Translations under genes and position numbers: made by a program | The notes under the pieces: model-generated | What the model was told of the DNA's origin: nothing | The model's input: the letters and a program-made list of their open reading frames with translations, nothing else | Databases searched by the model: none | Origin: a virus | DNA length: 64,000 nt | Strand: one strand, 5' to 3' | IMG/VR virus record: IMGVR_UViG_3300009103_000004 | Coordinates: 1-64,000 of that record | Part shown: one piece after another, positions 12,479 through 61,108 of the stretch | Position numbering within the stretch: the stretch's first letter is position 1 | Layout: the number at the start of each line of letters is the position of its first letter

Positions 12479-13564
12479 TTAGCTAGTACCGAAGAGGGTC
12501 TGGTACATCTCATCGTTTTTTCCGGCGGGCCCTCTTCGGTTTACTCTTTTTCTTTCTTCTTCTTTTTCTAAGATATCCAACTTCTCCCGATACTTCTTAA
12601 ACTCGTCGTCTGTCCTGGACCAAGCTTCCGTGGCTCTAGCAGTTGTTGCTCCTATAGGCATCCCTATAACTCCACCTAATCGTCCGACAGGCCCTCCTGC
12701 TAGCCCGCCAACAAGAGCACCACTATAGCTACCGTACGATCCACCGAATATTTGGTTTAAGTAATCTATTTTCTTTTTGTCAGCTACGGTGAGTTTTTCC
12801 TTTTTGTTAATTGCCTGTAACGCTTTGTTCATAGCATTACGATTTGCCCTGTACTCAAGATACATTGTCGTTCCCGGAACAGGCAGTAATCCTAACGTGG
12901 CTTGTTCGAGAAGAGGTAACAGAGCACGGCCACCAGGAGTTCCGTCTTCGGTGAAATCTTGTGCATGCCCCAACTCATGTCTCAAAACTCCAGGATCTGC
13001 AGATTCAACATTTACTGTGTCAGAAAATGGGTTGTAATGGTTTGGTCTGTTAAACCCCGCCATCCCGGCAGCTGCTTGCAATGGGTAAACTAAGCCCCCA
13101 AATAGTTTAGAGGGCCAGCCAGTTTTCTTATTTTTAAAAATATTTATAAATTCAGTTAATGGCCTAACACCCCCTAGCGACACATTAGTCTCTGCTAATG
13201 ACGGGTCATCCTTTAATTCTTCTATAATCTCCTTGATCTGCTTGTGCTGCTCTTGACTAGGCCCATGAATAAACTCCCTAGCATTAGTCCAAGGTGTCAT
13301 ATTATACGGTGACCCAGCGAGACTTAGAGCATAGTTTAATGGCTGTATCCTTCCCATTATCTCAAACGGCTTTGAAACTGAATCTGCAAGCTCGCCAACT
13401 GCCCCTCGTGACGTAGAACCCCCAGGGCCCTCACTCCATGTCGGCTCATACACACGCATGGGCCCAAAGTCTTCGGAGTCTATGTAAGGTAAACGCCTGA
13501 GTCCCTTTTTACGCTTCTTAGCAGCACTTGAACGTTTAGCTATGCCTGCTAGTCCGTTCATCAC
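12479..13564 (-). CDS. Zinc metallopeptidase-like protein with glycine-zipper helices
   Basis: NHYNPFSDTV...LRHELGHAQD (HExxH) with downstream LEYRAN third ligand; Gly-rich hydrophobic C-terminus. Confidence 0.65.
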   Translation of the reverse strand: MMNGLAGIAKRSSAAKKRKKGLRRLPYIDSEDFGPMRVYEPTWSEGPGGSTSRGAVGELADSVSKPFEIMGRIQPLNYALSLAGSPYNMTPWTNAREFIHGPSQEQHKQIKEIIEELKDDPSLAETNVSLGGVRPLTEFINIFKNKKTGWPSKLFGGLVYPLQAAAGMAGFNRPNHYNPFSDTVNVESADPGVLRHELGHAQDFTEDGTPGGRALLPLLEQATLGLLPVPGTTMYLEYRANRNAMNKALQAINKKEKLTVADKKKIDYLNQIFGGSYGSYSGALVGGLAGGPVGRLGGVIGMPIGATTARATEAWSRTDDEFKKYREKLDILEKEEERKRVNRRGPAGKNDEMYQTLFGTS

Positions 13565-15399
13565 AATAATCCTGTCTTTTCTGAATCTTCACCGAACCCG
13601 TGTCCAATTGCTAGCCTTGGTGCAAAGTGTACGTTCCTATCTACGTTTGTCTCTGCTCCGGAATTTGCAGACTGACTAAGCCTATGTGCTTGATAGCTGG
13701 AGTGTAAGGAAGCCAGCCAGTCCTTCTCATTTAAAGTTGCAGTTCTAAGCCTGACCATCTCTGGCTCAAAATTTAGTTTGTCGTCACTTGCTATCACTTT
13801 GTTAATACCCATATCAGCAATGTTGTTTGCCATGTTGGGAGTTATCTTGGTGCCAAGAGAGTAGTGTAGAGCCGGTGCGTGTAAGTACTTACCCACAGCG
13901 CTCTGCGTATCTCTTAACACAGCACTCTTGGGCGGGACATATGAAGAAACCAAAGAATTATAGGATGCCAAGTCTTCGGGCAGGTAACCACCTATGTCAT
14001 CATCCCCAGTTACACGAACATGATCCAATGCCCCTTTTGCTAAAAATTCTAAATTCTTTTTACTAGCGTATAGTCCACTATTATCAAAGACTTCCTTTAA
14101 ATAGTTTACGTAATGCTGTCTTCCTGAGCCCAAACCTCGTAAAGCTATAACGTCCTTTACGTCAAGTATACCCTCACTAAGTCTGTCTCCCGGTTCTACT
14201 GTCTGACCACGTTTTACATTTATCTCAAATCCAGGAAGAATATAATGATCCTGCCCATCTATTGTTACATTGTTCCCACCTTGCGGAGCCTTGCTTATTT
14301 TTTCCACGCGACCACCAACCTCAGCTAGTGTAGCCTTATTCGGGTATGTAGAAGGGCTTTGCATTATTTGATTAACCACCTTGAACCCGCTAGTAGGAAC
14401 TTTACTTCCACTAAACTGCCCACCCCCATGTTTAACATTTAGAGCACCTTGCGTTAGTGGCTCGCTCAAAGCGTGTGCAGCAGTTATACCTACAGCTTCT
14501 CCAAGTTTAGGGAACTTGCCGTCATTATTTAAACCCGAGCACTTAACGCATACACCGCTGGCAGACTCACAAGTTAACGGGCTTCTTGCCAGCACTCTTT
14601 CTTTTTTTAACTTGGTTAGTGCTTTATATACACTTTTATCTACAGCTTCCCCAGCAGCTACAGGGCCATACTTTCGTTGTAATACCCTGCCTGATAATTC
14701 TTCCACATCAGAAACATCAAGAGGTATGCCATTAGTTGTACCGCAGTCATCCTCAGTAGTTATCAACCTTGTAACGGACTGTACCATTTGCTTAGCTAAA
14801 TCACCAGCGTCTGCGGTAGCTTCTTTAGTAGATATAACAGCTTTTCTGGCGCCGAACGTACTTGATAGGTATTCTGCTGGCCTCAAGCCCTCGCCATAGC
14901 TGTTCTCTATAAACAAATCTATAATATTATCTTTGTAGTCTGTGTAAACTCCGGGAGTTGTGATCATGGATTTGAGCTGCCCTTTGTTTCCTCTTGCTCC
15001 AGAGACTACGGAGTTACCGAGATTGTGCTCAGTACCCTTGATTGACTCCATTGTCATCTTTTCTAGTATGTCAGAATACTTTGCGTATACAGCAGCTCTC
15101 GCACTTCTCTTGTCTTTTGCCTTGGATTCAGCCTTTTTTACGTCTTGCTTCATCTTAGCTATGACAGCGTCCTTGTCGAACGTCGGGTACATATCTGCCA
15201 GAGTTATGGTCTCTGCCTGGTTGTACGAAGCTTCCCTACCCAAGTCAGAAATCTCTTTAGATAACTTCCTATACTTCTCGGGGTGCTTGCTGGCAATTTC
15301 GGACATTATATAACTTATACCCTTACTGTTATATTCGACACCCTCCAAATCTATATCTTCGGGCACAATATCTCGCATTATTAAATCGACTGCCTTCAT
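13561..15399 (-). CDS. rpoC: Phage RNA polymerase beta' subunit, C-terminal half
   Basis: SGARG; bridge helix GARKAVISTKEATADAGDL; EDDCGT and RSPLTC..VCVKC Zn site; GEAVGITAAHALSEPLTQGALNVKHGGG trigger loop. Confidence 0.9.
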   Translation of the reverse strand: MKAVDLIMRDIVPEDIDLEGVEYNSKGISYIMSEIASKHPEKYRKLSKEISDLGREASYNQAETITLADMYPTFDKDAVIAKMKQDVKKAESKAKDKRSARAAVYAKYSDILEKMTMESIKGTEHNLGNSVVSGARGNKGQLKSMITTPGVYTDYKDNIIDLFIENSYGEGLRPAEYLSSTFGARKAVISTKEATADAGDLAKQMVQSVTRLITTEDDCGTTNGIPLDVSDVEELSGRVLQRKYGPVAAGEAVDKSVYKALTKLKKERVLARSPLTCESASGVCVKCSGLNNDGKFPKLGEAVGITAAHALSEPLTQGALNVKHGGGQFSGSKVPTSGFKVVNQIMQSPSTYPNKATLAEVGGRVEKISKAPQGGNNVTIDGQDHYILPGFEINVKRGQTVEPGDRLSEGILDVKDVIALRGLGSGRQHYVNYLKEVFDNSGLYASKKNLEFLAKGALDHVRVTGDDDIGGYLPEDLASYNSLVSSYVPPKSAVLRDTQSAVGKYLHAPALHYSLGTKITPNMANNIADMGINKVIASDDKLNFEPEMVRLRTATLNEKDWLASLHSSYQAHRLSQSANSGAETNVDRNVHFAPRLAIGHGFGEDSEKTGLL

Positions 15400-20807: not shown

Positions 20808-23800
20808 TTATACAATGTTTACTTCGTCATTCAAATTTATATGTCCTGCACGTATAGCTTTTAACGCATCCGCTTTACTCCTAAAAGTAAAGGGCGTGCC
20901 ACCTTTGGATTTCTGCGAAGAATATAACCCCAGTATAAATTCATGTTTTGGTTTAGGCACAATATCATTTCTCTTCTTAATTGAGAATAACATTTTAGAT
21001 GGTAAAAGTTTGTTCTTAGCATCGTCCACCGCTTCGGGTAATGCAGGTAACTGTATATTCATAGCATCCCCATCAAAGTCTGCATTGTGACCTGTAGTTA
21101 CTAACGGGGATATCATAATAGTATTACCCTCAATTAGCTTAGGGTAACCAGCAGTAATATTATATTTATGCCAAGCTGGAGACCGTGAGTATATGACTGG
21201 TCGATCCTTAGATTCTAACTTCATAGCATGCTCTGCATGAGGGGCCCTGTCCCTAATAGCTATAACAGCATCTGCAGCACTTCTTCCAGACCTAACCAAC
21301 CTGCGCTGAATGTAAGGAGCGTATAGCTTCCACGCCATCTCCTTTGGTATCCCTATTTCATCTAGGTCAAGTTCTGGGTCTACGCCAATAACTCCTCTGC
21401 CAGAAGAGTCTACTGGTTTAGATATCAACCTACGTTGAAAAAAACTAAACTTAGCTTGGTTACCAACTAGTTTTTTTAGAAACCCCGAAACTCCTCTGGA
21501 TTTAGTCTTTGGTTGTACGGGGTCGCCAAACCCGTAAACGGCTTTGACTGCGTCATAAACATTTAATCTGCTGTCACCTACAGCTTCATCTCCCAACTCG
21601 TCTCTCAAGTCACGATACGAATCCCTTACCTCGAACAAATCTTTGTACAGTTCGTTAGCATCTCCTGGGACAAAAGAATCACCTATGATGTTAAACGGCC
21701 TAAACTTAGGAGGAATAACAGGAACTCTTGTTATCAAATAATCCGAAGGTGCTATATTATTTTTGCGCATCCCATGGGCGTAACGCATAAGTTTAATAGA
21801 TGGGCCGCGAGCAGATTTCTTTTTGCTGTCCAAGCCCTCCTTAGACATTTTCTCAACATCATTTACAGAGAAGGTTCTTAGTGCAGCGGCTAGTGAATCA
21901 GGCCCAGTATGCTTCATCTGGGAAACATCTGCAGTGCTGGCTGCTTTATCAATATACTCTGGTGGTATGCCACCACTGGGGGTTATAATTTGAGCGTGTG
22001 GCACATTGCTCGCATAACGAGCACCATCCGGTTCATCGTAATGCTTCCATAATTCTTCAGGAGTTTTTGAAATATACTTTCTAACATCCTCAATACCTAT
22101 ATCCTTGTGTCTCTCATCACCTTGATGCTCAGGACCCTCAGGGTCATAAGGAACTAACTCAGACCCAACTATACGTGTGCCCGGGTGATCCTTTAGTAAT
22201 TTACTTAAGTTTATTCTGATCAATTCAGATTTAAGTTTTTTAATTGGATGCGCATCAGTTATCTTACTAGAATCGGGATCTCCGAATAGTACGCTTGGTC
22301 CCTGCAGCGATGTTCCCCAAAACTCATCCTTAAGTTCCTCACTCACTCTAGCTTTAAAATCTTCTTCCGATTCTTCCCAATCTGTCCCAGCCCTGTTGGC
22401 TAGCACTGCCTTTAGCACCTCTTTGTTATCCAGCAAAGACTTGGAAGACAACAGGCCATGCTTATTTACTAAATCCGTAGATCCTCCTGGAATTGCACTT
22501 GTGACATATACGTCGGCCTCAGTGCTGGATTTCTTAACAAACTTAGCTATCCTATCAATTAAGCTCTGTGGAAGCTCTTCCTTACCAGATAATATATTTC
22601 TATACTGCTTTTCGGTAAGCCCCAGTATTTTTCTTACCGGCTCCTCGAATGCTGGGTTTGGAACTTCAAATGGTAATCTCACAAAGCCATACTTGTTTGT
22701 GTTTGATAAGGAGTCATCAAACAAACCACCTTTAACCGGTACTACAGCGCCCTTGGACAACTGACGCATCTCAAGCAAACCAGGGTTGTTTACCTCTACA
22801 GGGTCTAGTTCCGTAAGAACTTTCTCGGTCATTGGTCCGAGTCTCATGTCGCCCTTTTTATTTATCTGCCTAGCGTGATACCCAGATCCCTGAAGCAAAG
22901 TTTTAAATTTATTATATACCAGCGGAGTATCAGGCATCTTTGGATCGTACCCGCTCCTTAGCTGTTGCCAGTAGTCATCGTTCTTTGCTCCACGCAATAA
23001 TGACATGTCTTTCAACATGCCGTAAGCGCCAGATGATAACAGCCCATGGGTTTCAAGCCCACTTAACCGCTTGCTCTGAGCTAATTCATCCCCGCCCTTA
23101 AGTGGTTGCTCGTTAATATCATACGCTCCTTGGTTTCTAGCTGAGAACCCCTTAGTAGCAGTGTGGTGAAGCTTTAGAACGTAAGCGTCACCAACAGTTG
23201 CAGGCTTTTGTAATTTCTTATCACTTTGCGGGTCAAAGATTTCCTCCACATCAGAAATCCCATGCTTATCCAACTCACCCTTAACATAACTAAACCACTT
23301 GTTTCCCGGCTGTGTAAAAGCATTTAACTTGTAAGGCTTTCCCGTAGCTTTTGCAGCTTTACCCAACAGTAACTCGTAAATCATAGAGTTATTAACACGT
23401 GACGGTATCCCAAGAGGGTTAAGTAAAAGCTCAAGCGGCTTACCATTAACAGTTCTGGGCATATGGTCGTTTGGTATTATTTTACTTATCGTTCCCTTTT
23501 GACCTGATCTAAAAACAACCTTGTCACCAGGCATGGCTGGCTCATCAGAGCGTACTGTAACCTTAACCCCACTCCGAGTTCTTACAACATCTGTAACCAC
23601 CCCGGGAGTTTCGTGCTCCCAAACTAAAGAGGCATCATTCCTGGCATTCTTCATATACGATGAGAGCTTACCAAGTTTTTGTGATGAGGAAGAAACTACA
23701 CGAGGCTTACTAGCAAGTGCAACTGGATCACCAGGTTCCAGAGTTTGGCCCGGAAGAACCACACCGTTATCATCTAATTTATCTAACTGTGATATAACAA

Positions 23801-24482
23801 ATTTCTTTGGGAAAAGACTTACGTAGTGGTTCTTACCACCCTTTACACCACGCTTATATTCCAAATCGTCAGCATACATATGCTCGCTGGTAAGACGTTT
23901 TGCAAAATCTTCAGATACCACAATAGCGTCTTCCATTGAGTGACCCTTGTAAGGTAAGAGTCCAACTCTAGCATTGAGGCCAAGCGCCAGCGTTCCCCTA
24001 TCGTCTGTGTAGTTTGATTTGGCTAATAAATCTCCAGACTTAACAACGTCACCCTTTCTTACTATAGGAGTGTTGTGTAGGCTGGTTTTTCTATTGAAGG
24101 GAAAGTTATGATAGAGTGGCTTCTTGATAAGCTCGCCATCTTCAGACTTTATAGTTATGCTCTTTTTGTTAACATTTTGAACCACACCGTTCTTGTCTGA
24201 GAACATAGCGCCTGCATTACGCCCAAGCGTTTCGTCAAAGCTTTCTCCGTTATCGCTAAGCTCGTTTATATTTTGAATGAGTGGAGCTTCAGGATTTGAA
24301 AGAGGCAAAGCCTGATTAAAATACTTAGACCCGTAAAAGAGTCTAGAGCCATGAACTGAAGATTGAAGTGGTATTAGATTTAGATGACTACCGAAGAATT
24401 GGTTTGTGGACGGCAGCTCATAATCTACTTCCTTATTATCAACCTTAGTTATAACATCATTCTTAATTGCATGTCTCATCAT
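20808..24482 (-). CDS. Phage RNA polymerase fused beta C-terminal / beta' N-terminal subunit (catalytic)
   Basis: Beta motifs: EDAIVVSE, PGDKVVFRSGQKGTISKI, LLNPLGIPSR, YVLKLHH, KRLSGLE. Beta' motifs: GGLFD, VPVIPPKFRP, KPVDSSGRGVI, RSPAWHK, NADFDGD (21066-21086). Confidence 0.93.
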   Translation of the reverse strand: MMRHAIKNDVITKVDNKEVDYELPSTNQFFGSHLNLIPLQSSVHGSRLFYGSKYFNQALPLSNPEAPLIQNINELSDNGESFDETLGRNAGAMFSDKNGVVQNVNKKSITIKSEDGELIKKPLYHNFPFNRKTSLHNTPIVRKGDVVKSGDLLAKSNYTDDRGTLALGLNARVGLLPYKGHSMEDAIVVSEDFAKRLTSEHMYADDLEYKRGVKGGKNHYVSLFPKKFVISQLDKLDDNGVVLPGQTLEPGDPVALASKPRVVSSSSQKLGKLSSYMKNARNDASLVWEHETPGVVTDVVRTRSGVKVTVRSDEPAMPGDKVVFRSGQKGTISKIIPNDHMPRTVNGKPLELLLNPLGIPSRVNNSMIYELLLGKAAKATGKPYKLNAFTQPGNKWFSYVKGELDKHGISDVEEIFDPQSDKKLQKPATVGDAYVLKLHHTATKGFSARNQGAYDINEQPLKGGDELAQSKRLSGLETHGLLSSGAYGMLKDMSLLRGAKNDDYWQQLRSGYDPKMPDTPLVYNKFKTLLQGSGYHARQINKKGDMRLGPMTEKVLTELDPVEVNNPGLLEMRQLSKGAVVPVKGGLFDDSLSNTNKYGFVRLPFEVPNPAFEEPVRKILGLTEKQYRNILSGKEELPQSLIDRIAKFVKKSSTEADVYVTSAIPGGSTDLVNKHGLLSSKSLLDNKEVLKAVLANRAGTDWEESEEDFKARVSEELKDEFWGTSLQGPSVLFGDPDSSKITDAHPIKKLKSELIRINLSKLLKDHPGTRIVGSELVPYDPEGPEHQGDERHKDIGIEDVRKYISKTPEELWKHYDEPDGARYASNVPHAQIITPSGGIPPEYIDKAASTADVSQMKHTGPDSLAAALRTFSVNDVEKMSKEGLDSKKKSARGPSIKLMRYAHGMRKNNIAPSDYLITRVPVIPPKFRPFNIIGDSFVPGDANELYKDLFEVRDSYRDLRDELGDEAVGDSRLNVYDAVKAVYGFGDPVQPKTKSRGVSGFLKKLVGNQAKFSFFQRRLISKPVDSSGRGVIGVDPELDLDEIGIPKEMAWKLYAPYIQRRLVRSGRSAADAVIAIRDRAPHAEHAMKLESKDRPVIYSRSPAWHKYNITAGYPKLIEGNTIMISPLVTTGHNADFDGDAMNIQLPALPEAVDDAKNKLLPSKMLFSIKKRNDIVPKPKHEFILGLYSSQKSKGGTPFTFRSKADALKAIRAGHINLNDEVNIV

Positions 24483-54194: not shown

Positions 54195-54425
54195 TCAGTC
54201 CTCTTTCTCCAATATTTTCTTATTTTTTTCAACATCATTATCTAACGCAGCAAGACTCTCTTCGAGCATACTGGTAAGTCCTATTTTAAAATAATCATTT
54301 CTAGTAATTTCTTCTTCCCCAATTTTTACAATCATATCGTATGTTTCGTCCTCCATCTCCAAATCTACAGCACAAGACTCAACATCCCTAACCTCTAATA
54401 CTTTTATAACCGGCAAATCTAACAT
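54195..54425 (-). CDS. Hypothetical protein
   Basis: Likely start MLDLPVIKV at 54425. Confidence 0.4.
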   Translation of the reverse strand: MLDLPVIKVLEVRDVESCAVDLEMEDETYDMIVKIGEEEITRNDYFKIGLTSMLEESLAALDNDVEKNKKILEKED

Positions 54426-54461
54426 AAAATTAAATAGTAACACTGTTGCGTTACAGATAAA

Positions 54462-54710
54462 GAAAAAAAAGGTCGGACCACCTCGCCCTGAAACCAAGGC
54501 GAGGCTGCAAAATAAACTCGATAAAGAATTTTAAACTTTAATGCAGGAGGTTTAACTAATGAACATTCAATTTTGAATCTTAATGGCTAGTTACTCCGGG
54601 CCTTCAGCCCTTGTCGGCATCAATAGTTGGATTTCTTTATTCCTTGCATAGGAATGTTATAGCACGTTATTAGCGCGCAGTGAGTTTGTGTTTGCTGGTC
54701 ACGACCTTAA
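54462..54710 (-). ncRNA. Putative structured ncRNA/3'-UTR element with nine 7-nt repeats
   Basis: Closing stem AAGGUCG(U)GACCA / UGGUCCGACCUU; internal hairpins; 63-nt heptamer array at 54523-54585; ends in a U-tract. Confidence 0.6.
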
Positions 54711-54717
54711 AGTCTCT

Positions 54718-55239
54718 TCAAACAGAGATGAAGGTTGTCGCGTTAATGCGATCTATTTCATCCTGAAGATCGGCAAGTTCTCGGTTGATGTCCTGCTCTT
54801 GCCTGTCCACATGCTCCTGGTTGAAGTGAGCTGTGTACTTAAGCTCGACAGGATTCTCAGACCTGTAACTTAGCATCTCTTCAAAATGCTTTCCGTCTTT
54901 TGTTTCGAGCCCACGAAAGAAGGATAAAGTATCCTTCATCTCCGAAAGGCGGTAAATCTTTTCCTGGACTCCAGTTTCAGAGTTGGCCCGCTGGATTGCA
55001 GACTTCAAAGAAACGAGCCTTTGCTTTGTTGTGGTGTATTCGTCAAACACCAAAGCACAATCCACGGTGGACGTGCTCTTTTCGCTCTTGGAGTTTTCAC
55101 GCTCCATTATTCCCCTTAAACGGGAAATTTCCTTAACTAGGAGGTTCTTTTCCTTCAAGGCTCTCGCGAGTGACATTTTGCCCTCGCCCACTTTTTCTGC
55201 ATTACTTGTATCAAGTATACCGTCACCAATATCTGTCAT
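54718..55239 (-). CDS. DIP1984/DUF6847-like alpha-helical protein
   Basis: MSLARALKEKN...LKSAIQRAN...LQDEIDRINATT pattern; start may be MSLARA at ~55176. Confidence 0.55.
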   Translation of the reverse strand: MTDIGDGILDTSNAEKVGEGKMSLARALKEKNLLVKEISRLRGIMERENSKSEKSTSTVDCALVFDEYTTTKQRLVSLKSAIQRANSETGVQEKIYRLSEMKDTLSFFRGLETKDGKHFEEMLSYRSENPVELKYTAHFNQEHVDRQEQDINRELADLQDEIDRINATTFISV

Positions 55240-55266: not shown

Positions 55267-55292
55267 AAAAAAAGCTCTCTAGGAAAGAGAGC
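55267..55292 (-). terminator. Terminator/attenuator-like hairpin in the leader of the DIP1984-like gene
   Basis: GCTCTCT/AGAGAGC stem followed by T7. Confidence 0.55.
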
Positions 55293-55313
55293 TAGCTAAT
55301 AAGCGTTCATGTA

Positions 55314-55331: not shown

Positions 55332-55370
55332 ACAAGGTTGCACTTTACCCGAAAGCTGGGGCAACCTTGT
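55332..55370. repeat. Perfect 10-bp inverted repeat after the glycan cluster
   Basis: ACAAGGTTGC...GCAACCTTGT directly after the methyltransferase stop. Confidence 0.65.
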
Positions 55371-55939
55371 TATAGATTAAATACCATAACAGAATCTCTA
55401 AACCAACTACAATTTGTGCTAGATTTTTGTAGAGTTTCAGATAATTCATTGTCGTGGGTTAGGCCATACTCGTCCATAACGTCTATAACGTAATCTTGAT
55501 TTTGTTCATTAACATGACCACATCCTCTTTGCCCAATTTTAGCCCAACTAATTATTAGTAAATTGCTGCAATGCCTTAATAAGTTTTCAATATATATTTT
55601 TTCATATTCTTTAGGAATGTGTTCAGCAACTTCTAATGAACAGACCACATCGTACTTTTTATTAAGATCAAATGTTTTAGATAAATCTAAAACCTTACCA
55701 AATCCATCAGTCACTAATTCAACTTCTGGATTGCCGTCGTATGCTTCAACTGCAATTAATGGATTATTCTCTTTTATGTACTTTGCATACTTTGCATCAC
55801 CACATCCAAAGTCTACATATGTATTATAGTTAGAAACTATAGTATTAAGAGTTTTTGAGAAAGATTCATCGTAATGATGATTAATACACGCTCCTTCCCA
55901 GAATCCTCTAGAATTTATTTTTTGTCTATATCGTTTCAC
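55370..55939 (-). CDS. Class I SAM-dependent methyltransferase
   Basis: VDFGCG, YDVVCSLEVAEHI, GHVNEQ. Confidence 0.85.
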   Translation of the reverse strand: MKRYRQKINSRGFWEGACINHHYDESFSKTLNTIVSNYNTYVDFGCGDAKYAKYIKENNPLIAVEAYDGNPEVELVTDGFGKVLDLSKTFDLNKKYDVVCSLEVAEHIPKEYEKIYIENLLRHCSNLLIISWAKIGQRGCGHVNEQNQDYVIDVMDEYGLTHDNELSETLQKSSTNCSWFRDSVMVFNL

Positions 55940-55940
55940 T

Positions 55941-56528
55941 TTAAAAGGGGCTTTTCAAGTGCCTCTTGTAGGGAGTAATGTAATTATCTCCGTACTGATC
56001 GGCCAGTACCTTTACCGTGTCCTTCTTGCTTGGCGCATACGTATCAACACCATACAGTTTGATTTTACGCAACTTATTGTAATCTATTTTGTAATCCATC
56101 CAGAAATCCGACTCTATGATATTAAGTACCAGGTCGCAATGTATGTTCATTTGGGGGAAAGATTTAGGACTGCCGGCAGTGTCAAACGTTAACAGCCATG
56201 CCTGTATTCCATTTATCTTCTGCTTGTCCATGTCGTGAAATCTTTTGTCGAAGGACAAATTGTATTTCGGGTTCTCTATATTGTTATCGTCGCTACAATA
56301 TATTTCCCATTGTGTAAGGTCGTCCACACAAAACCTGAGATCTATGTCATCATCGTGATAGATTGGCTTGCCACGCTCGTACTCTATCAAGTTACCATGC
56401 GAAATTACATATCGCACACCGACATCATCTAACAAAGCGGACATACCCTCCATCAACTGTCTTTTGTAAGACAATACGTATTTGTAAGTCTCCTCGGTTA
56501 CTACGACTTTGTTATGTTTGTATTTCAT
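55941..56528 (-). CDS. licD: LicD-family phosphotransferase
   Basis: GNLI..ERG...HDDDIDL; LADQYGDNYITP. Confidence 0.7.
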   Translation of the reverse strand: MKYKHNKVVVTEETYKYVLSYKRQLMEGMSALLDDVGVRYVISHGNLIEYERGKPIYHDDDIDLRFCVDDLTQWEIYCSDDNNIENPKYNLSFDKRFHDMDKQKINGIQAWLLTFDTAGSPKSFPQMNIHCDLVLNIIESDFWMDYKIDYNKLRKIKLYGVDTYAPSKKDTVKVLADQYGDNYITPYKRHLKSPF

Positions 56529-56533
56529 TTTTA

Positions 56534-57334
56534 TTAGAAAAGTTCTTCACAATATATCCCACTGTTAATACCTTCCCATCTATGCCCATCAACGTTAAAA
56601 TCTTTTAAATCCTCTATTGGGATAGTAAGCCTTGAATCTCCCTCATCATACATCTCCGCAAATGCATCACGCTTTAACTTATGGTTGAATTGAATTTTAC
56701 ATGATTTAAAAACATCCTCACCATACTGACGTTTTAATAAATCTACGGAACAGTTTGGCACAGGGACAGTAAGTCCTTCGTAATCGGCCTTTAGAAGTGG
56801 GAATATATTGTCCACTGGATCCGAAAAAGATTTAATGTGGCCGGAGACCATTTGACGTTTGGGAATTGTCAGCATGCCATCTTTAATATCATAAGTATAA
56901 AAATCGATGAATGGGTAAGCCCTACCCCTGACATAAGTCTTAAATGGAACTCCCCAATCTTTTTTCCATAGAGTCAAGTCCCCTGGCCACAATCCATCTT
57001 CGGTATGTTTGTTTTCCTTTGTCTGCCCGGGAACATATTTTTCTGACCCGTGAATTATCCATTTAGTATATCCCTTTTCTATGTCCTTTGGTGAAGGAAC
57101 ATGTTTCTTTAAATTAGACGTTAATTTGGGTATGTCGTCAGCACTTATGACAATATCAATATCATCATCCCAAGGCATTCGTCTACCATGTCGCAAAGCT
57201 CCTATAAGTGTGCCAAAGGCCAGAAAAAATTTAATATCCTGACTGACTAGAAAGTTAAATGTTTGCTCAAATAAATAAACCAACCTAGCCTCCTGCTCTC
57301 GGCTGAGGTCCATTTCTTTAGATATGCTGTTCAT
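56534..57334 (-). CDS. licD: LicD-family phosphotransferase
   Basis: FGTLIGALRHG..MPWDDDIDI; IFPL; LKRQYG. Confidence 0.85.
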   Translation of the reverse strand: MNSISKEMDLSREQEARLVYLFEQTFNFLVSQDIKFFLAFGTLIGALRHGRRMPWDDDIDIVISADDIPKLTSNLKKHVPSPKDIEKGYTKWIIHGSEKYVPGQTKENKHTEDGLWPGDLTLWKKDWGVPFKTYVRGRAYPFIDFYTYDIKDGMLTIPKRQMVSGHIKSFSDPVDNIFPLLKADYEGLTVPVPNCSVDLLKRQYGEDVFKSCKIQFNHKLKRDAFAEMYDEGDSRLTIPIEDLKDFNVDGHRWEGINSGIYCEELF

Positions 57335-57352
57335 GAATAGACTAGTTTAGAT

Positions 57353-58261
57353 TTATGCAATTCTTTCCATGAAGGGGCACGCATCCATGATATCTTCGTA
57401 ATTAAAATTAATGGGCCTATCATCAAAGTTAAAATGTTTTTCCAGATTAGACGCGTCAAGAGCACCAGGGACATTTTTGATTTTATACATATGCCGGTCA
57501 CGGATCTTATCTACTGACATAAAATAATCCAGATATTTAAATCGCCCAGAGGCAGAGCAAGAGGCCCCGGTAACTTTTGGTGTCCAAAGCCATGCATTAG
57601 GAATATTAAATGCATCGGATATGATCAACCCATGCAGGGCTGAAGATACGATCTTCTCGCATGACAGTATATCTATAAGAGTTTTCTCAACATCCGTTGT
57701 TTTAAGGTCAATTAACTTTACATTATCTCCCGGTACAGCATCTTTCCAGGCCCAGTCATTACACCGTATAATTACTCCTATCTTATGTGTTTTTGGTATA
57801 TCTTCCCGGGTTTTATCAAATAAGTAAGGTACTAAAAGCGCTGGGTCTCCATATACTTCTGGGCAGTGGCCGCCGGCAGATGCTATTAAGCTCCGTGTTA
57901 ACGGTCCACGTACTGAATGATATTTAGCTTGTTCTGAATGATGTCCGGCACCTAGGGTCTTCATCTTTCTAAACGGCTCGGTACTATTTGCACCAGTTCC
58001 CCATACTATACTTGTCGGCCTGACATACAGTAGCATAGATCCTATAGCTATATAGTGCGGTTGTTTAATCAATTTAGTACATGTAGACGGGGGCTCAACA
58101 ACACTCCTGGCATTTATACCTGTCAATTTATGTATTAACCATGGTGATATAGCATCTCCCCAATTGTCGATCCGCCTCCACCACGTAAGTGGGACTTCAC
58201 CATCCCTTAAGATAATATCTTTTCTAGGCCTGTATTTAGAAGTAATTTCATTAACACCCAT
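57353..58261 (-). CDS. Polysaccharide pyruvyltransferase
   Basis: NWGDAISP, IGSML, VWGTG, VRGPLT, GDPALL, SSALHGLIISDAFNIP. Confidence 0.85.
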   Translation of the reverse strand: MGVNEITSKYRPRKDIILRDGEVPLTWWRRIDNWGDAISPWLIHKLTGINARSVVEPPSTCTKLIKQPHYIAIGSMLLYVRPTSIVWGTGANSTEPFRKMKTLGAGHHSEQAKYHSVRGPLTRSLIASAGGHCPEVYGDPALLVPYLFDKTREDIPKTHKIGVIIRCNDWAWKDAVPGDNVKLIDLKTTDVEKTLIDILSCEKIVSSALHGLIISDAFNIPNAWLWTPKVTGASCSASGRFKYLDYFMSVDKIRDRHMYKIKNVPGALDASNLEKHFNFDDRPINFNYEDIMDACPFMERIA

Positions 58262-58283
58262 ACTGTCATCTCCTCTATTTAAT

Positions 58284-58760
58284 CTATCTAACTATCTTCT
58301 CAATTAACATTGTTGTAGATATCGAAGGTGTCCGGGGCAGGTACACTACTTCACATATATCCTTAAACTCGTCGAACTTACCCTTCCAGTCATCCCCCAT
58401 AACAAGGACATGCGCCTCATATTCTTTTATATATTCCCTTTTCTGCTCCATTGATTCCTCAAGAAATACTTTATCAACTACGCTTAAGGCCCCGACAATA
58501 GCCATCCTATCCTCTTGATTAACCACAGGATATTTCTTTTTTTTATCATAGTTCATCTTATCACTAGACACTCCAACTATTAGAGTAGGCTCTGGTCCAA
58601 ACCAACCTAGTTTTCTAATTTTTGGATTTTCAGTTTCCTTGTATGGGTATACCATAACTCGGCCAGCTTCATTCGCCCCATTAAGAATATTCAAATGCCC
58701 TATGTGAAATAGATCGAATGTGCCGAATGTGATTACATTACTAGTGGTCCTCTCTGTCAT
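58284..58760 (-). CDS. tagD: Glycerol-3-phosphate cytidylyltransferase
   Basis: TFGTFDLFHIGH, VGVSSD, MGDDWKGKFD, LPRTPSISTT; likely start MTER at 58760. Confidence 0.88.
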   Translation of the reverse strand: MTERTTSNVITFGTFDLFHIGHLNILNGANEAGRVMVYPYKETENPKIRKLGWFGPEPTLIVGVSSDKMNYDKKKKYPVVNQEDRMAIVGALSVVDKVFLEESMEQKREYIKEYEAHVLVMGDDWKGKFDEFKDICEVVYLPRTPSISTTMLIEKIVR

Positions 58761-58770
58761 GCCTTTGTTG

Positions 58771-59328
58771 TTACATATTACATTCGAAAATCTTATAATT
58801 CGTATCCCAATATTTTGAGTACTCACTTTCGACTAATCCCCTATTCCTATGAAATGTGGTATCGGCATGTGAGCCAGAAGGAACTTTCCAATTACCATAT
58901 AGTTGATCTAGATATAGCTCGCTTTCAATTGGTATTGTGTAAATTTCTTCATTCATTTTGACCTCCTCTAATTTCGGGAATGCTGGATTTGCGTAAACGT
59001 CACAATATAATTCAGCCCATTTAGTTTTAATACTAATCATGTTACCCCATTTTTTTTTAGGATAATGCTCATGCGCTTTAATTTTTATTAAGTCATATTT
59101 TTCAAAATTAATTTTCTTCAATTTGCCCCACTGAGATAGGTGAGTAGTTATATCGACGTCAGTATCACTTATTATTAAATCTTTATCTCTCACACAACCT
59201 ATCAGTGTACCACAATCCAAATAATATTTTATACCCTTAGCATTTAATATATGTACAACCTTTTTTAAAAGATAATTCATTAACTCCAATTTATGTCGAG
59301 CTACCTCATTCCAATATGCAAAATCCAT
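58771..59328 (-). CDS. licD: LicD-family phosphotransferase
   Basis: CGTLIGCVRD...DTDVDI; YLDQLYGNWKVP. Confidence 0.75.
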   Translation of the reverse strand: MDFAYWNEVARHKLELMNYLLKKVVHILNAKGIKYYLDCGTLIGCVRDKDLIISDTDVDITTHLSQWGKLKKINFEKYDLIKIKAHEHYPKKKWGNMISIKTKWAELYCDVYANPAFPKLEEVKMNEEIYTIPIESELYLDQLYGNWKVPSGSHADTTFHRNRGLVESEYSKYWDTNYKIFECNM

Positions 59329-59341
59329 TGAACATTATCAT

Positions 59342-61108
59342 TTATTGTTTATTTTTTTGGCTAACCAAATAATCAAAACACCCTTGATATTTGTAAGCGT
59401 TAACGCCATCCGGGCGTATCCATTTCTTTTCCTTGAACTCTGGGAGGCCGCTAGCTTTGAAAATAGCATCCTCTCCAAAACCATATGTAAACTGCGTTAC
59501 TAATTTAAGATTATAAAACTCATTATTTAACACCTCTGTGCCAATACCCTGTTCAGACAAAAGAAAGGAGTGCACCATATCATCAGAAAACCTACAAGTA
59601 CTGCATTCGTTAGATACGGAAACCATTTTATTTATTGTATCCTCGTGTATGTCCGAAACCTTGTATGCTACACCTGAAAACCCTTCAGAAACAACTTTGT
59701 TCTCATGCGGCCAGTCTTTATCGTCAATGTCCCAAAAGGACAAGGTTGGCGCAGAAGCAGTAACCACCTTGTTATTGAGTTTAGACATTGCTAGGGCCAT
59801 TTCATTAACCATCCCAAACGGGTAAGCAGTGTCGTCATCGATTGTAATTAAAATAGCACTAGGGTCATGTTCCTTTAGGTACCTCAATGCGGGAATCAGT
59901 TTATTTATGGGTCCTAGATCATGCTCACCCCTAATAAGAGTTACCTTCTCATTAGAAGTTAAATCTTTGGGTATAATATAATCTTCCTCATCTCTGTACT
60001 TATCGGGCAACGATAATAGTATGGCATTAACAAACTCTAAATCCAATGTGTTTAAGGGGTAGTAGATTTTATCAAGCCTGGAAGGAGAAGAAGTCAACGA
60101 CACGTAAACGTTATGTTCTGAAAGATACGCAGAAAGCTCATCAGATACCACTCTTCGTTTTTGTTTAAGGCAAGCCTGTACGATACCGCGAAATTTATAA
60201 ATTGATTTATCACAAACATCACCGCCTGGGTATGGGAAATTAACAGTTGTAAGTTCACCGAACGAGGGGGTGACGCGGCCTTGCCAATTTTGCTCTATCT
60301 CTCCAAGGTGTACTACACGTACGCTTTTTAACGTAGTTTTCTTTTTAAACTTACCACTAAATAGTAGGTCTGAGTGTGAGGCATCACGATGGTGCTCGGG
60401 GTATGGCTGGTTGCCTATTTTACTACTCTTGAAGTTTAAAGAATTAAAAAGTTGAAAGTAACCTATAGGCATTCCGCGCGGGCTGTATGCTTTGGGTAGA
60501 GCTGTAAAGTCGCGTCCAGAAGACTTGTAGCTATCAAACTCCTCAGGCGTTTCCGCGAAATGACGTATTGCTCCGTATAAAGTCGTAGTATTCAAACTAC
60601 GAGTGTCCATGTAACGCTTGAAATATGGTGGAAACACAATATCTGCATCAAATATCAAAACCCAATTAGATTTATTAGTACCGATTTTCGAAAGACCCAA
60701 ATTAATACCTGCGCCCTTGTCAAAGAAAGAACCACCCCGGTAAAACACGTCAGTCTTTATCAACTCTACGAAATCATATTTTCGGCAAAGCTCCTCAGTA
60801 GCTTTATCGTTAGTGTCTGTTACTACATATAACTTTGTAAACACACCGACTGCAGACTCCAAACTATACTTAAAATAATCAGCATAGTTAACACAACAAA
60901 CAACTCCATACAACTTAGCAACAGGAACGGATGTATCTGGTACCCAAAGACCAGAACCAGAATCAGATGTCTTAGCAGCCTTAACCTCAAGCATAGGGTC
61001 TAAATCCTGACCGCCGCCGCGTCTGGGGTTGTCACCAATATAATTAATACTTTTCTTTATAGGAACGTTCCTCTTCTTTACATTTAAGTTAAAATTTATA
61101 TCCATCAC
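59342..61108 (-). CDS. Two-domain GT-A glycosyltransferase
   Basis: N-domain VCCVNYADY, KGAGIN, IFDAD; C-domain VSLTSSPSR, DLGPINK, ITIDDD, FSDD. Confidence 0.75.
   Translation of the reverse strand: MMDINFNLNVKKRNVPIKKSINYIGDNPRRGGGQDLDPMLEVKAAKTSDSGSGLWVPDTSVPVAKLYGVVCCVNYADYFKYSLESAVGVFTKLYVVTDTNDKATEELCRKYDFVELIKTDVFYRGGSFFDKGAGINLGLSKIGTNKSNWVLIFDADIVFPPYFKRYMDTRSLNTTTLYGAIRHFAETPEEFDSYKSSGRDFTALPKAYSPRGMPIGYFQLFNSLNFKSSKIGNQPYPEHHRDASHSDLLFSGKFKKKTTLKSVRVVHLGEIEQNWQGRVTPSFGELTTVNFPYPGGDVCDKSIYKFRGIVQACLKQKRRVVSDELSAYLSEHNVYVSLTSSPSRLDKIYYPLNTLDLEFVNAILLSLPDKYRDEEDYIIPKDLTSNEKVTLIRGEHDLGPINKLIPALRYLKEHDPSAILITIDDDTAYPFGMVNEMALAMSKLNNKVVTASAPTLSFWDIDDKDWPHENKVVSEGFSGVAYKVSDIHEDTINKMVSVSNECSTCRFSDDMVHSFLLSEQGIGTEVLNNEFYNLKLVTQFTYGFGEDAIFKASGLPEFKEKKWIRPDGVNAYKYQGCFDYLVSQKNKQ

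Follow-up and report, generated by a model that had tools for sequence, protein, structure and literature searches.

The first 64,000 nucleotides (nt) of the IMG/VR virus record IMGVR_UViG_3300009103_000004 (positions 1-64,000; this stretch is referred to as the window and its coordinates are used throughout) carry a gene for a DIP1984-like protein, which is followed on the same strand by a structured RNA. This uncatalogued pair of gene and RNA recurs in many phages and bacteria. The RNA forms a family that is strictly linked to the gene and is found in the company of RNA-repair genes and tRNAs, and a closing stem together with an array of 7-nt units are the conserved hallmarks of this family accompanying DIP1984-like genes. 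Probably, the two make up a protein-RNA particle that has not been described before and is connected with RNA damage. As the best overall explanation we propose that gene and RNA constitute one module, a ribonucleoprotein serving the RNA-damage response, an explanation which we hold with about as much belief as doubt.

The whole structured RNA of the window comprises 255 nt from the stop codon to the end of a U-tract (54463..54717; this and all further features of the window lie on the minus strand) and would be made as the 3' part of the gene transcript. It begins 10 nt past the stop codon, and no terminator separates gene and RNA. The 256 nt following the stop codon folded with -85.8 kcal/mol compared to -55.6 ± 4.5 kcal/mol for 200 dinucleotide shuffles (z -6.77), none of which was as good. 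The closing helix P1, present in the minimum-free-energy fold, is formed by the 5' arm AAGGUCGUGACCA (54696..54708) and the 3' arm UGGUCCGACCUU (54469..54480). A run of eight U (54463..54470), as read from the sequence, adjoins and overlaps the 3' arm, and P1 together with this run probably ends the transcript. According to the fold, P1 encloses a variable-region hairpin GCGCG/CGUGC (54662..54678), a hairpin UUCCU/AGGAA (54640..54654), a hairpin GGGC-UGAAG-GCCC immediately 5' of the array (54598..54610), in the position of which relatives have a GC hairpin, too, and a GC hairpin CCUCGCC/GGCGAGG adjoining the 3' arm of P1 (54481..54504). A first-pass annotation, made from the letters of the DNA without database searches, had described a structured non-coding RNA with a closing stem, hairpins, a U-tract and nine in-register heptamers at this place; all of these elements were recovered at the coordinates it gave.

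The nine heptamers cover 63 nt (54523..54585), and the unit logo across relatives gives the family consensus A-Y-U-Y-A-A-A. The U at position 3 is present in all nine units. None of 300 shuffles reached the 7-nt register at period 7, and 26 of 300 did so if periods from 3 to 12 were allowed. Judged from the window alone the register is thus borderline; across the relatives it is decisive. The program TRF called no tandem repeat at the array. The array had initially been regarded as unpaired, which is plausible; the single-sequence fold pairs it in part, but no pairing within it is conserved. RNAalifold predicted no conserved pair in the heptamer core, to which misalignment by MAFFT could contribute, and the core may be read as an unpaired rail.

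Apart from a TTG frame starting at 54497 there are no open reading frames (ORFs) of at least 40 amino acids (aa) on the RNA strand, and the tRNA/tmRNA search gave no match on the RNA. Likewise, Rfam 15 contained no family matching the RNA at gathering score in the 64-kb window; the region 54350-54800 yielded chance-level rows only (E at least 3), and a search of the loci of 29 relatives with Rfam gave nothing on the RNA.

To describe the RNA as a family, we used 80 viral and 31 bacterial loci, all encoding relatives of the DIP1984-like protein; the tests of the downstream regions comprised 79 distinct regions from phages and bacteria and 147 control segments from the same loci. In most relatives the gene is followed by 200-400 nt without an ORF. 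By eye, these regions share a plan in which an arm closely follows the stop codon and is succeeded by hairpins that vary; next come an A/U-rich stretch of U[CU]AAA units and the complement of the first arm, in many cases with a terminator of its own behind it. The distances between pairs of U[CU]AA in the 79 regions peaked at 7 nt (93 pairs), 14 nt (71), 21-22 nt (42-44) and 28-29 nt (25-33), with a further peak at 36 nt, whereas the distribution in the control segments was flat (3-19). With eight to nine in-phase units compared to a family median of four, the rail of the phage in the window is among the longest.

MAFFT leaves the closing arms out of register across phage and bacterial groups. 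Therefore, the closing helix was tested for each sequence against its shuffles, and base pairs were counted only in a bacterial subgroup. For 45 of the 79 loci, none of 60 shuffles reached the stability of the duplex between the 5' arm and the 3' region, and 22 of the 79 exhibited uninterrupted closing stems of 10-19 bp with mutually unrelated sequences. The covariation set consisted of 14 alignable Verrucomicrobiota copies in an unfitted MAFFT alignment. Here, 96.3% of the cells of 50 consensus pairs were paired (25-47% in slid controls), and we counted 36 cells with double changes compared to 13.7 in shuffles, with none of 500 shuffles reaching 36. Six compensatory pairs lie within the closing helix. 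The expectation of the first-pass annotation that homologous genes are followed by a 7-nt periodicity and a covarying closing stem was therefore borne out. A K-turn or box C/D motif (UGAUGA after the 5' arm and UGA before the 3' arm) was considered as well; it occurs in several relatives, not in the window, and was dropped.

The linkage of the RNA to the gene was followed with two models, a sequence-only model of the RNA core (R1) and a structure model of the bacterial subgroup (R2). R1 matches the window at 54532..54641 (40 bits, E 8e-11) and nothing else in the 167-kb genome. It gave one match per locus, on the strand of the gene and just 3' of it, for 47 of 55 viral sources and for 15 of the 31 bacterial loci. 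When other large phages were scanned as whole genomes, R1 always had its best match beside the gene, and on whole bacterial genomes of 4-9 Mb the number of R2 matches equalled the number of gene copies. Within a sample of 151 genomes of the phylum, R2 matched two genomes, both among the seven with the gene, and R1 located the RNA beside the gene in three further genomes. Weak R1 matches in genomes without the gene turned out to be false positives caused by perfect heptanucleotide microsatellites such as (GACTCAA)n; trustworthy matches are full-length and score about 30 bits or more. Intergenic microsatellites of this kind, (GACTCAA)n, (CTCAACA)n and (CTTAAAA)n, were seen in Verrucomicrobiota in L125 (G047:C78), L126 (G149:C15) and L127 (G131:C28).

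This close linkage could also be accounted for by a cis-acting element of the 3' untranslated region. The closing helix and the U-tract would then be an elaborate terminator or stabilizer, the protein would at most feed back on its own mRNA, and there would be no trans-acting particle. The short distance between stop codon and RNA with no terminator in between fits this explanation, as do the constant strand and order of gene and RNA and the U-rich tract that directly follows the 3' arm of P1 here and in many relatives. A terminator, however, needs no conserved single-stranded rail of 60-70 nt in strict 7-nt phase, and this rail is kept across phyla and viruses while the flanks diverge completely. 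Furthermore, many relatives have a separate canonical terminator after the RNA, and the RNA takes the place of the trans-acting Y RNAs in rtc operons (see below), which argues for a product. On balance we regard a purely cis-acting role as unlikely.

Among bacteria, rtc operons for RNA repair house the pair in three architectures, with RtcB, with RtcR/RtcA/RtcB or with Ro60/RtcB. In 14 loci of Opitutae and Akkermansia, about 25 nt separate the RNA from the start of RtcB. In the loci L100 and L101 a divergent RtcR is followed by the gene-RNA pair, RtcA and RtcB, and L122 has the order Ro60, DIP1984-like gene, RNA, RtcB; RtcB is also the next-door gene in L119 and L117. These rtc-type loci contain no Y RNA known to Rfam, so that the RNA occupies the slot which Y RNAs have in the Salmonella rsr-yrlBA-rtcBA operon. 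According to two papers, this operon encodes Ro60 (Rsr) along with Y RNAs and is under control of RtcR (PMC4201824, PMC7790460), and RtcR is reported there to respond to damaged tRNAs (PMC7790460). In viruses, RNA ligases of the Rnl type (PF09414) were found within 2.5 kb in 17 of the 80 loci, belonging to several sequence groups, and same-strand tRNAs within 2.5 kb in 13 of 49 distinct loci. In Anabaena sp. PCC 7120 the hypothetical gene all4315 is reported to be co-regulated with rtcB and the stress tRNA operon, and its homologues to be linked to tRNA arrays (PMC8421152). This gene may be the cyanobacterial DIP1984 homologue. The first-pass annotation missed the functional context, i.e. the operons with RtcB, RtcA, RtcR or Ro60 and the RNA ligases and tRNA arrays of phages.

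Several single loci showed additional features. In L016 (IMG/VR contig 3300011268_001667, 3637-4071 and flanks) the pair lies inside a dense same-strand tRNA array, which also carries a GOLLD RNA (241 bits) and a freshwater-1 RNA. ARAGORN detected a phage tmRNA about 1 kb downstream of the module in L055 (3907-4252), beside tRNA-Ser and tRNA-Met. Genes resembling PARP and genes of NAD salvage recur near the module: in one phage group it is followed by genes for ADP-ribosyltransferases of the WGR-PARP type (L009 3851-5140, L011 3543-4820, L015 3927-5198, L012 4819-5463), and in another it is preceded by a NAD-salvage gene of the NAMPT/NAPRTase type (L013 539-2227). The deltaproteobacterial copy L092 has a group II intron domain and a SAM-alpha riboswitch (965-1104, 1478-1553) just upstream and a SAM synthetase gene downstream.

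Alternatively, the RNA might work as a decoy or sponge independently of the protein. Its UYAAA units might titrate a host factor or a ribonuclease, e.g. an anticodon nuclease or an RNase of the HEPN or toxin type, and the cut RNA might serve as a signal or feed the ligase pathway. That the module accompanies tRNAs, RtcB/RtcA/RtcR and RNA ligases is in line with this possibility, and so is the reported responsiveness of RtcR to damaged tRNAs. In outline, the heptamer with its invariant U, YAA and purine resembles an anticodon loop. But the units are not displayed in stem-loops, and we know of no nuclease with specificity for UYAAA units. Moreover, a decoy leaves unexplained why the DIP1984-like gene is an invariant partner from Verrucomicrobiota to many phages. 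We therefore consider this explanation somewhat less likely still than the cis-acting element.

The DIP1984-like gene most likely spans 54718..55176 and encodes 152 aa. The open frame reaches upstream to an ATG at 55239, which corresponds to the 173 aa assumed in the first-pass annotation. An exhaustive search, however, revealed 981 homologues (E up to 1e-3) of about 145-155 aa, all of which align from query residue 21 or 22, and a Shine-Dalgarno-like GAGGG (55181..55185) is located 4 nt ahead of the ATG at 55176. For these two reasons Met22 was taken as the probable start. The nearest non-identical homologue (L128) shows 46% identity.

The sequence of the protein scored below the curated cut-offs of both relevant families, with 35.9 bits compared to a cut-off of 70 for NF038048 (DIP1984 family, NCBIfam) and 23.7 bits compared to 27 for PF20935 (DUF6847, Pfam). 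Residues 24-168 align to positions 2-146 of the 149 positions of the NF038048 profile, i.e. end-to-end as a single domain, and the PF20935 profile is likewise covered over its full length. Because of the scores we filed the protein as DIP1984-like; it is a distant branch and not a family member under the curators' rule. The Pfam scan gave just DUF6847 and a chance-level flagellin row, with no homology to TRAP or HutP. An AlphaFold2 model with a predicted local distance difference test (pLDDT) value of 93 displays a helical bundle plus a small beta element. This model matches 3KDQ with a VIA-align Z of 13.6 (root-mean-square deviation 2.9 Å over 144 of 152 residues), compared to a Z of 8.8 for the next unrelated row, and Foldseek gave a TM of 0.61-0.68 at probability 1.00 and 15-18% identity. 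3KDQ, an unannotated protein of Corynebacterium diphtheriae whose function is not known, is the sole clear structural relative. The likeness to DIP1984/DUF6847 noticed at first sight is hence sub-threshold by sequence score and clear by fold.

In a predicted four-copy assembly the protein reached an ipSAE of 0.65 via a symmetric interface, and the best control reached 0.00. Among proteins with solved structures, 20 of 30 pairs and 1 of 23 single chains attained this mark. The four-copy runs agreed in at least 62% of the contacts, with a partner pLDDT of at least 82. The prediction supports self-association of the protein, but the model may remember the solved 3KDQ crystal. The conserved motifs, ALKxKN at the N-terminus and LQDExDxxNATT at the C-terminus, are both outside the predicted interface and form a candidate functional patch.

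A type III-like toxin-antitoxin or abortive-infection pair, in which a toxic protein is neutralized by the repeat RNA and which the first-pass annotation had suggested, is highly improbable: the presence of a protein gene beside a repeat-bearing RNA on mobile elements is an analogy only, scans with Pfam, NCBIfam, PHROGs and PADLOC revealed no RNase family of the ToxN/AbiQ/CptN/TenpN type or any other, the repeats are imperfect and have 7 nt instead of about 36 nt with no full-length tandem units, the RNA is situated downstream of the gene and not upstream behind a terminator, and the pair occurs inside repair operons of the housekeeping type.

We return to the ribonucleoprotein serving the RNA-damage response. 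According to this proposal, the RNA would be transcribed as the 3' tail of the mRNA for the DIP1984-like protein, with its 3' end set by the long closing helix and the U-tract. The helix would hold out the A/U-rich single-stranded rail of UYAAA units in exact 7-nt spacing, and the helical protein, probably in the form of symmetric dimers, would dock onto this rail in multiple copies to form the particle. When RNA is damaged by cuts in tRNA or rRNA, the particle may play an accessory part beside RNA ligases. Bacteria would encode the module within their rtc repair operons in the slot of the Salmonella Y RNAs, and phages, carrying it often with tRNAs and RNA ligases, would most likely use it to maintain translation under attack by RNA-cutting host defences. 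We infer the binding of protein to RNA, its stoichiometry, the terminator role of P1 and the function in repair. The suggestion that one heptamer is bound per subunit as in TRAP is an analogy, its basis being just the one-to-one co-occurrence of gene and RNA and the predicted symmetric self-association.

Several observations weigh against this proposal. A symmetric dimer alone gives no account of a head-to-tail 7-nt register. The family has no known RNA-binding motif and is not basic (median isoelectric point 6.4; 5.7 for the copy in the window). L128, the closest protein relative, has a short array and a weak R1 match (E 0.034), so that a long rail is not obligatory. The Opitutae loci with RtcB are close kin and may represent one or a few independent events. 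Neither RtcB nor a PF09414 ligase was found in the phage studied here; PF09511 gave no match in it, nor did the control for that search, and RtcB is absent from five other large phages with the pair. The phage possesses one tRNA only, 69 kb from the module, which sits among polysaccharide-modification and unknown genes. The link to repair is therefore borrowed from the relatives.

A more far-reaching version would be a widespread, undescribed RNA-damage ribonucleoprotein that is a non-homologous counterpart of the Ro60-Y RNA particle. Its dimers would sit every 7 nt on the rail, it would pass cleaved tRNA or rRNA on to ligases (RtcB or Rnl) or gate these enzymes, and the phage copy would be a counter-defence against RNA-cutting immunity of the host. 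In this full form the idea is possible but rather doubtful.

The source record is a 167-kb virus that is about 94% complete, and the window is its first 64 kb. All long ORFs of the window are on the minus strand. The ORFs at 13561-15399 and 20808-24482 match PHROGs of the beta subunit of phage multisubunit RNA polymerases (split beta-like), and by these proteins the virus is probably a large phage with its own transcription apparatus. Since such a phage probably transcribes with its own polymerase, scans for sigma-70 promoters say little here. The first-pass annotation had assigned the gene its own promoter and a leader hairpin. The hairpin with T-run at 55273..55293, however, resembles a terminator and is more likely that of the upstream methyltransferase gene, and no sigma-70-like promoter was found near it on the minus strand.

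The DIP1984-like gene is flanked by a polysaccharide-modification block on one side and by small unknown ORFs on the other. The upstream block (55370-61108) includes two LicD-like genes and genes for a pyruvyl transferase, a CTP transferase and a glycosyltransferase of the cell-surface polysaccharide type. The gene for the methyltransferase (189 aa, 55370-55939) is missing in the otherwise near-identical metagenome contig L003 and therefore represents an indel between close relatives. L003 and the likewise near-identical L004 stop 30-50 nt past the DIP1984-like gene and are uninformative on the RNA. Downstream, a second terminator-like hairpin (54437..54454) precedes the next ORF (54195..54425), which encodes an acidic protein of 77 aa from the ATG at 54425, belongs to no family in our scans and is outside the module. 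No DNA match for the phage was obtained among GenBank phages, where the only protein relatives are in two uncultured jumbo-phage records, and a plasmid search with one homologue gave no match. A profile (A1) built from another branch of the family did not match phage T5 (AY543070), which has no bearing on whether T5 carries the pair.

Our literature search on DIP1984, DUF6847 and PF20935 found no study of the family, the sole mention being an Acinetobacter surveillance study. The family is often mislabelled as septicolysin on Acinetobacter plasmids, and papers on "septicolysin" list the annotation on plasmids and nothing more. A jumbo-phage survey does not mention the pair. If true, the proposal would place a family with a structure solved in 2009 (3KDQ) but without a function in a pathway, together with an obligate partner RNA. 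The RNA would be a large new class of structured RNAs with an unusual design, in which a closing helix holds out a single-stranded rail in strict 7-nt phase. RNA repair in bacteria by RtcB, RtcA and RtcR lacks clear substrates and specificity factors, and a second Y-RNA-like module in these operons makes this question testable. For phages, the module would represent an accessory system of a new kind, found together with tRNA arrays and RNA ligases, and would bear on the resistance of large phages to tRNA-cutting defences.

Compared with known systems, the protein shares its length class and the helical bundle with a small beta element with 3KDQ and the DIP1984 family, but differs in its sub-cut-off scores and low identity. 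ToxIN, CptIN and TenpIN likewise combine a protein gene with a repeat RNA on mobile elements; they differ in the family of the toxin, in how long and how perfect the repeats are, and in the order of the genes. TRAP and HutP of Bacillus subtilis, which act on the trp and hut leaders, respectively, also use short single-stranded units at fixed spacing, and HutP sites repeat every 7 nt. In contrast to these proteins, to which there is no homology, the units here are UYAAA and not NAG triplets, and the RNA is a helix-closed 3' trailer and not a 5' leader switching a terminator, with no conserved regulated gene downstream.

The operator of phage T4 gene 32 consists of a pseudoknot followed by unstructured UUAAA/UAAA repeats, which gp32 coats cooperatively with a site size of about 7 nt. 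It resembles the RNA described here in having a structured anchor beside an A/U-rich (U)UAAA run with a 7-nt footprint, and in both cases the transcript would be the target of the phage protein that it encodes. The T4 element, however, is the 5' operator of a single-strand binding protein with an OB-fold, whereas ours is a 3' element of a helical-bundle protein and is conserved beyond phages.

In the 64-kb window there is no Rfam Y RNA, and the search for a Ro60 domain, limited to the neighbouring ORFs, detected none in them. There is no homology between the protein and Ro60, the RNA carries a heptamer rail and not a tRNA-like module and is without match to the Rfam models of Y RNA or YrlA, and most copies, including this one, have neither Ro60 nor RtcB nearby. 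What the pair has in common with Ro60 and Y RNA is the long closing stem between the 5' and 3' ends of a non-coding RNA, the presumed protein partner encoded next to it and the setting in rtc operons.

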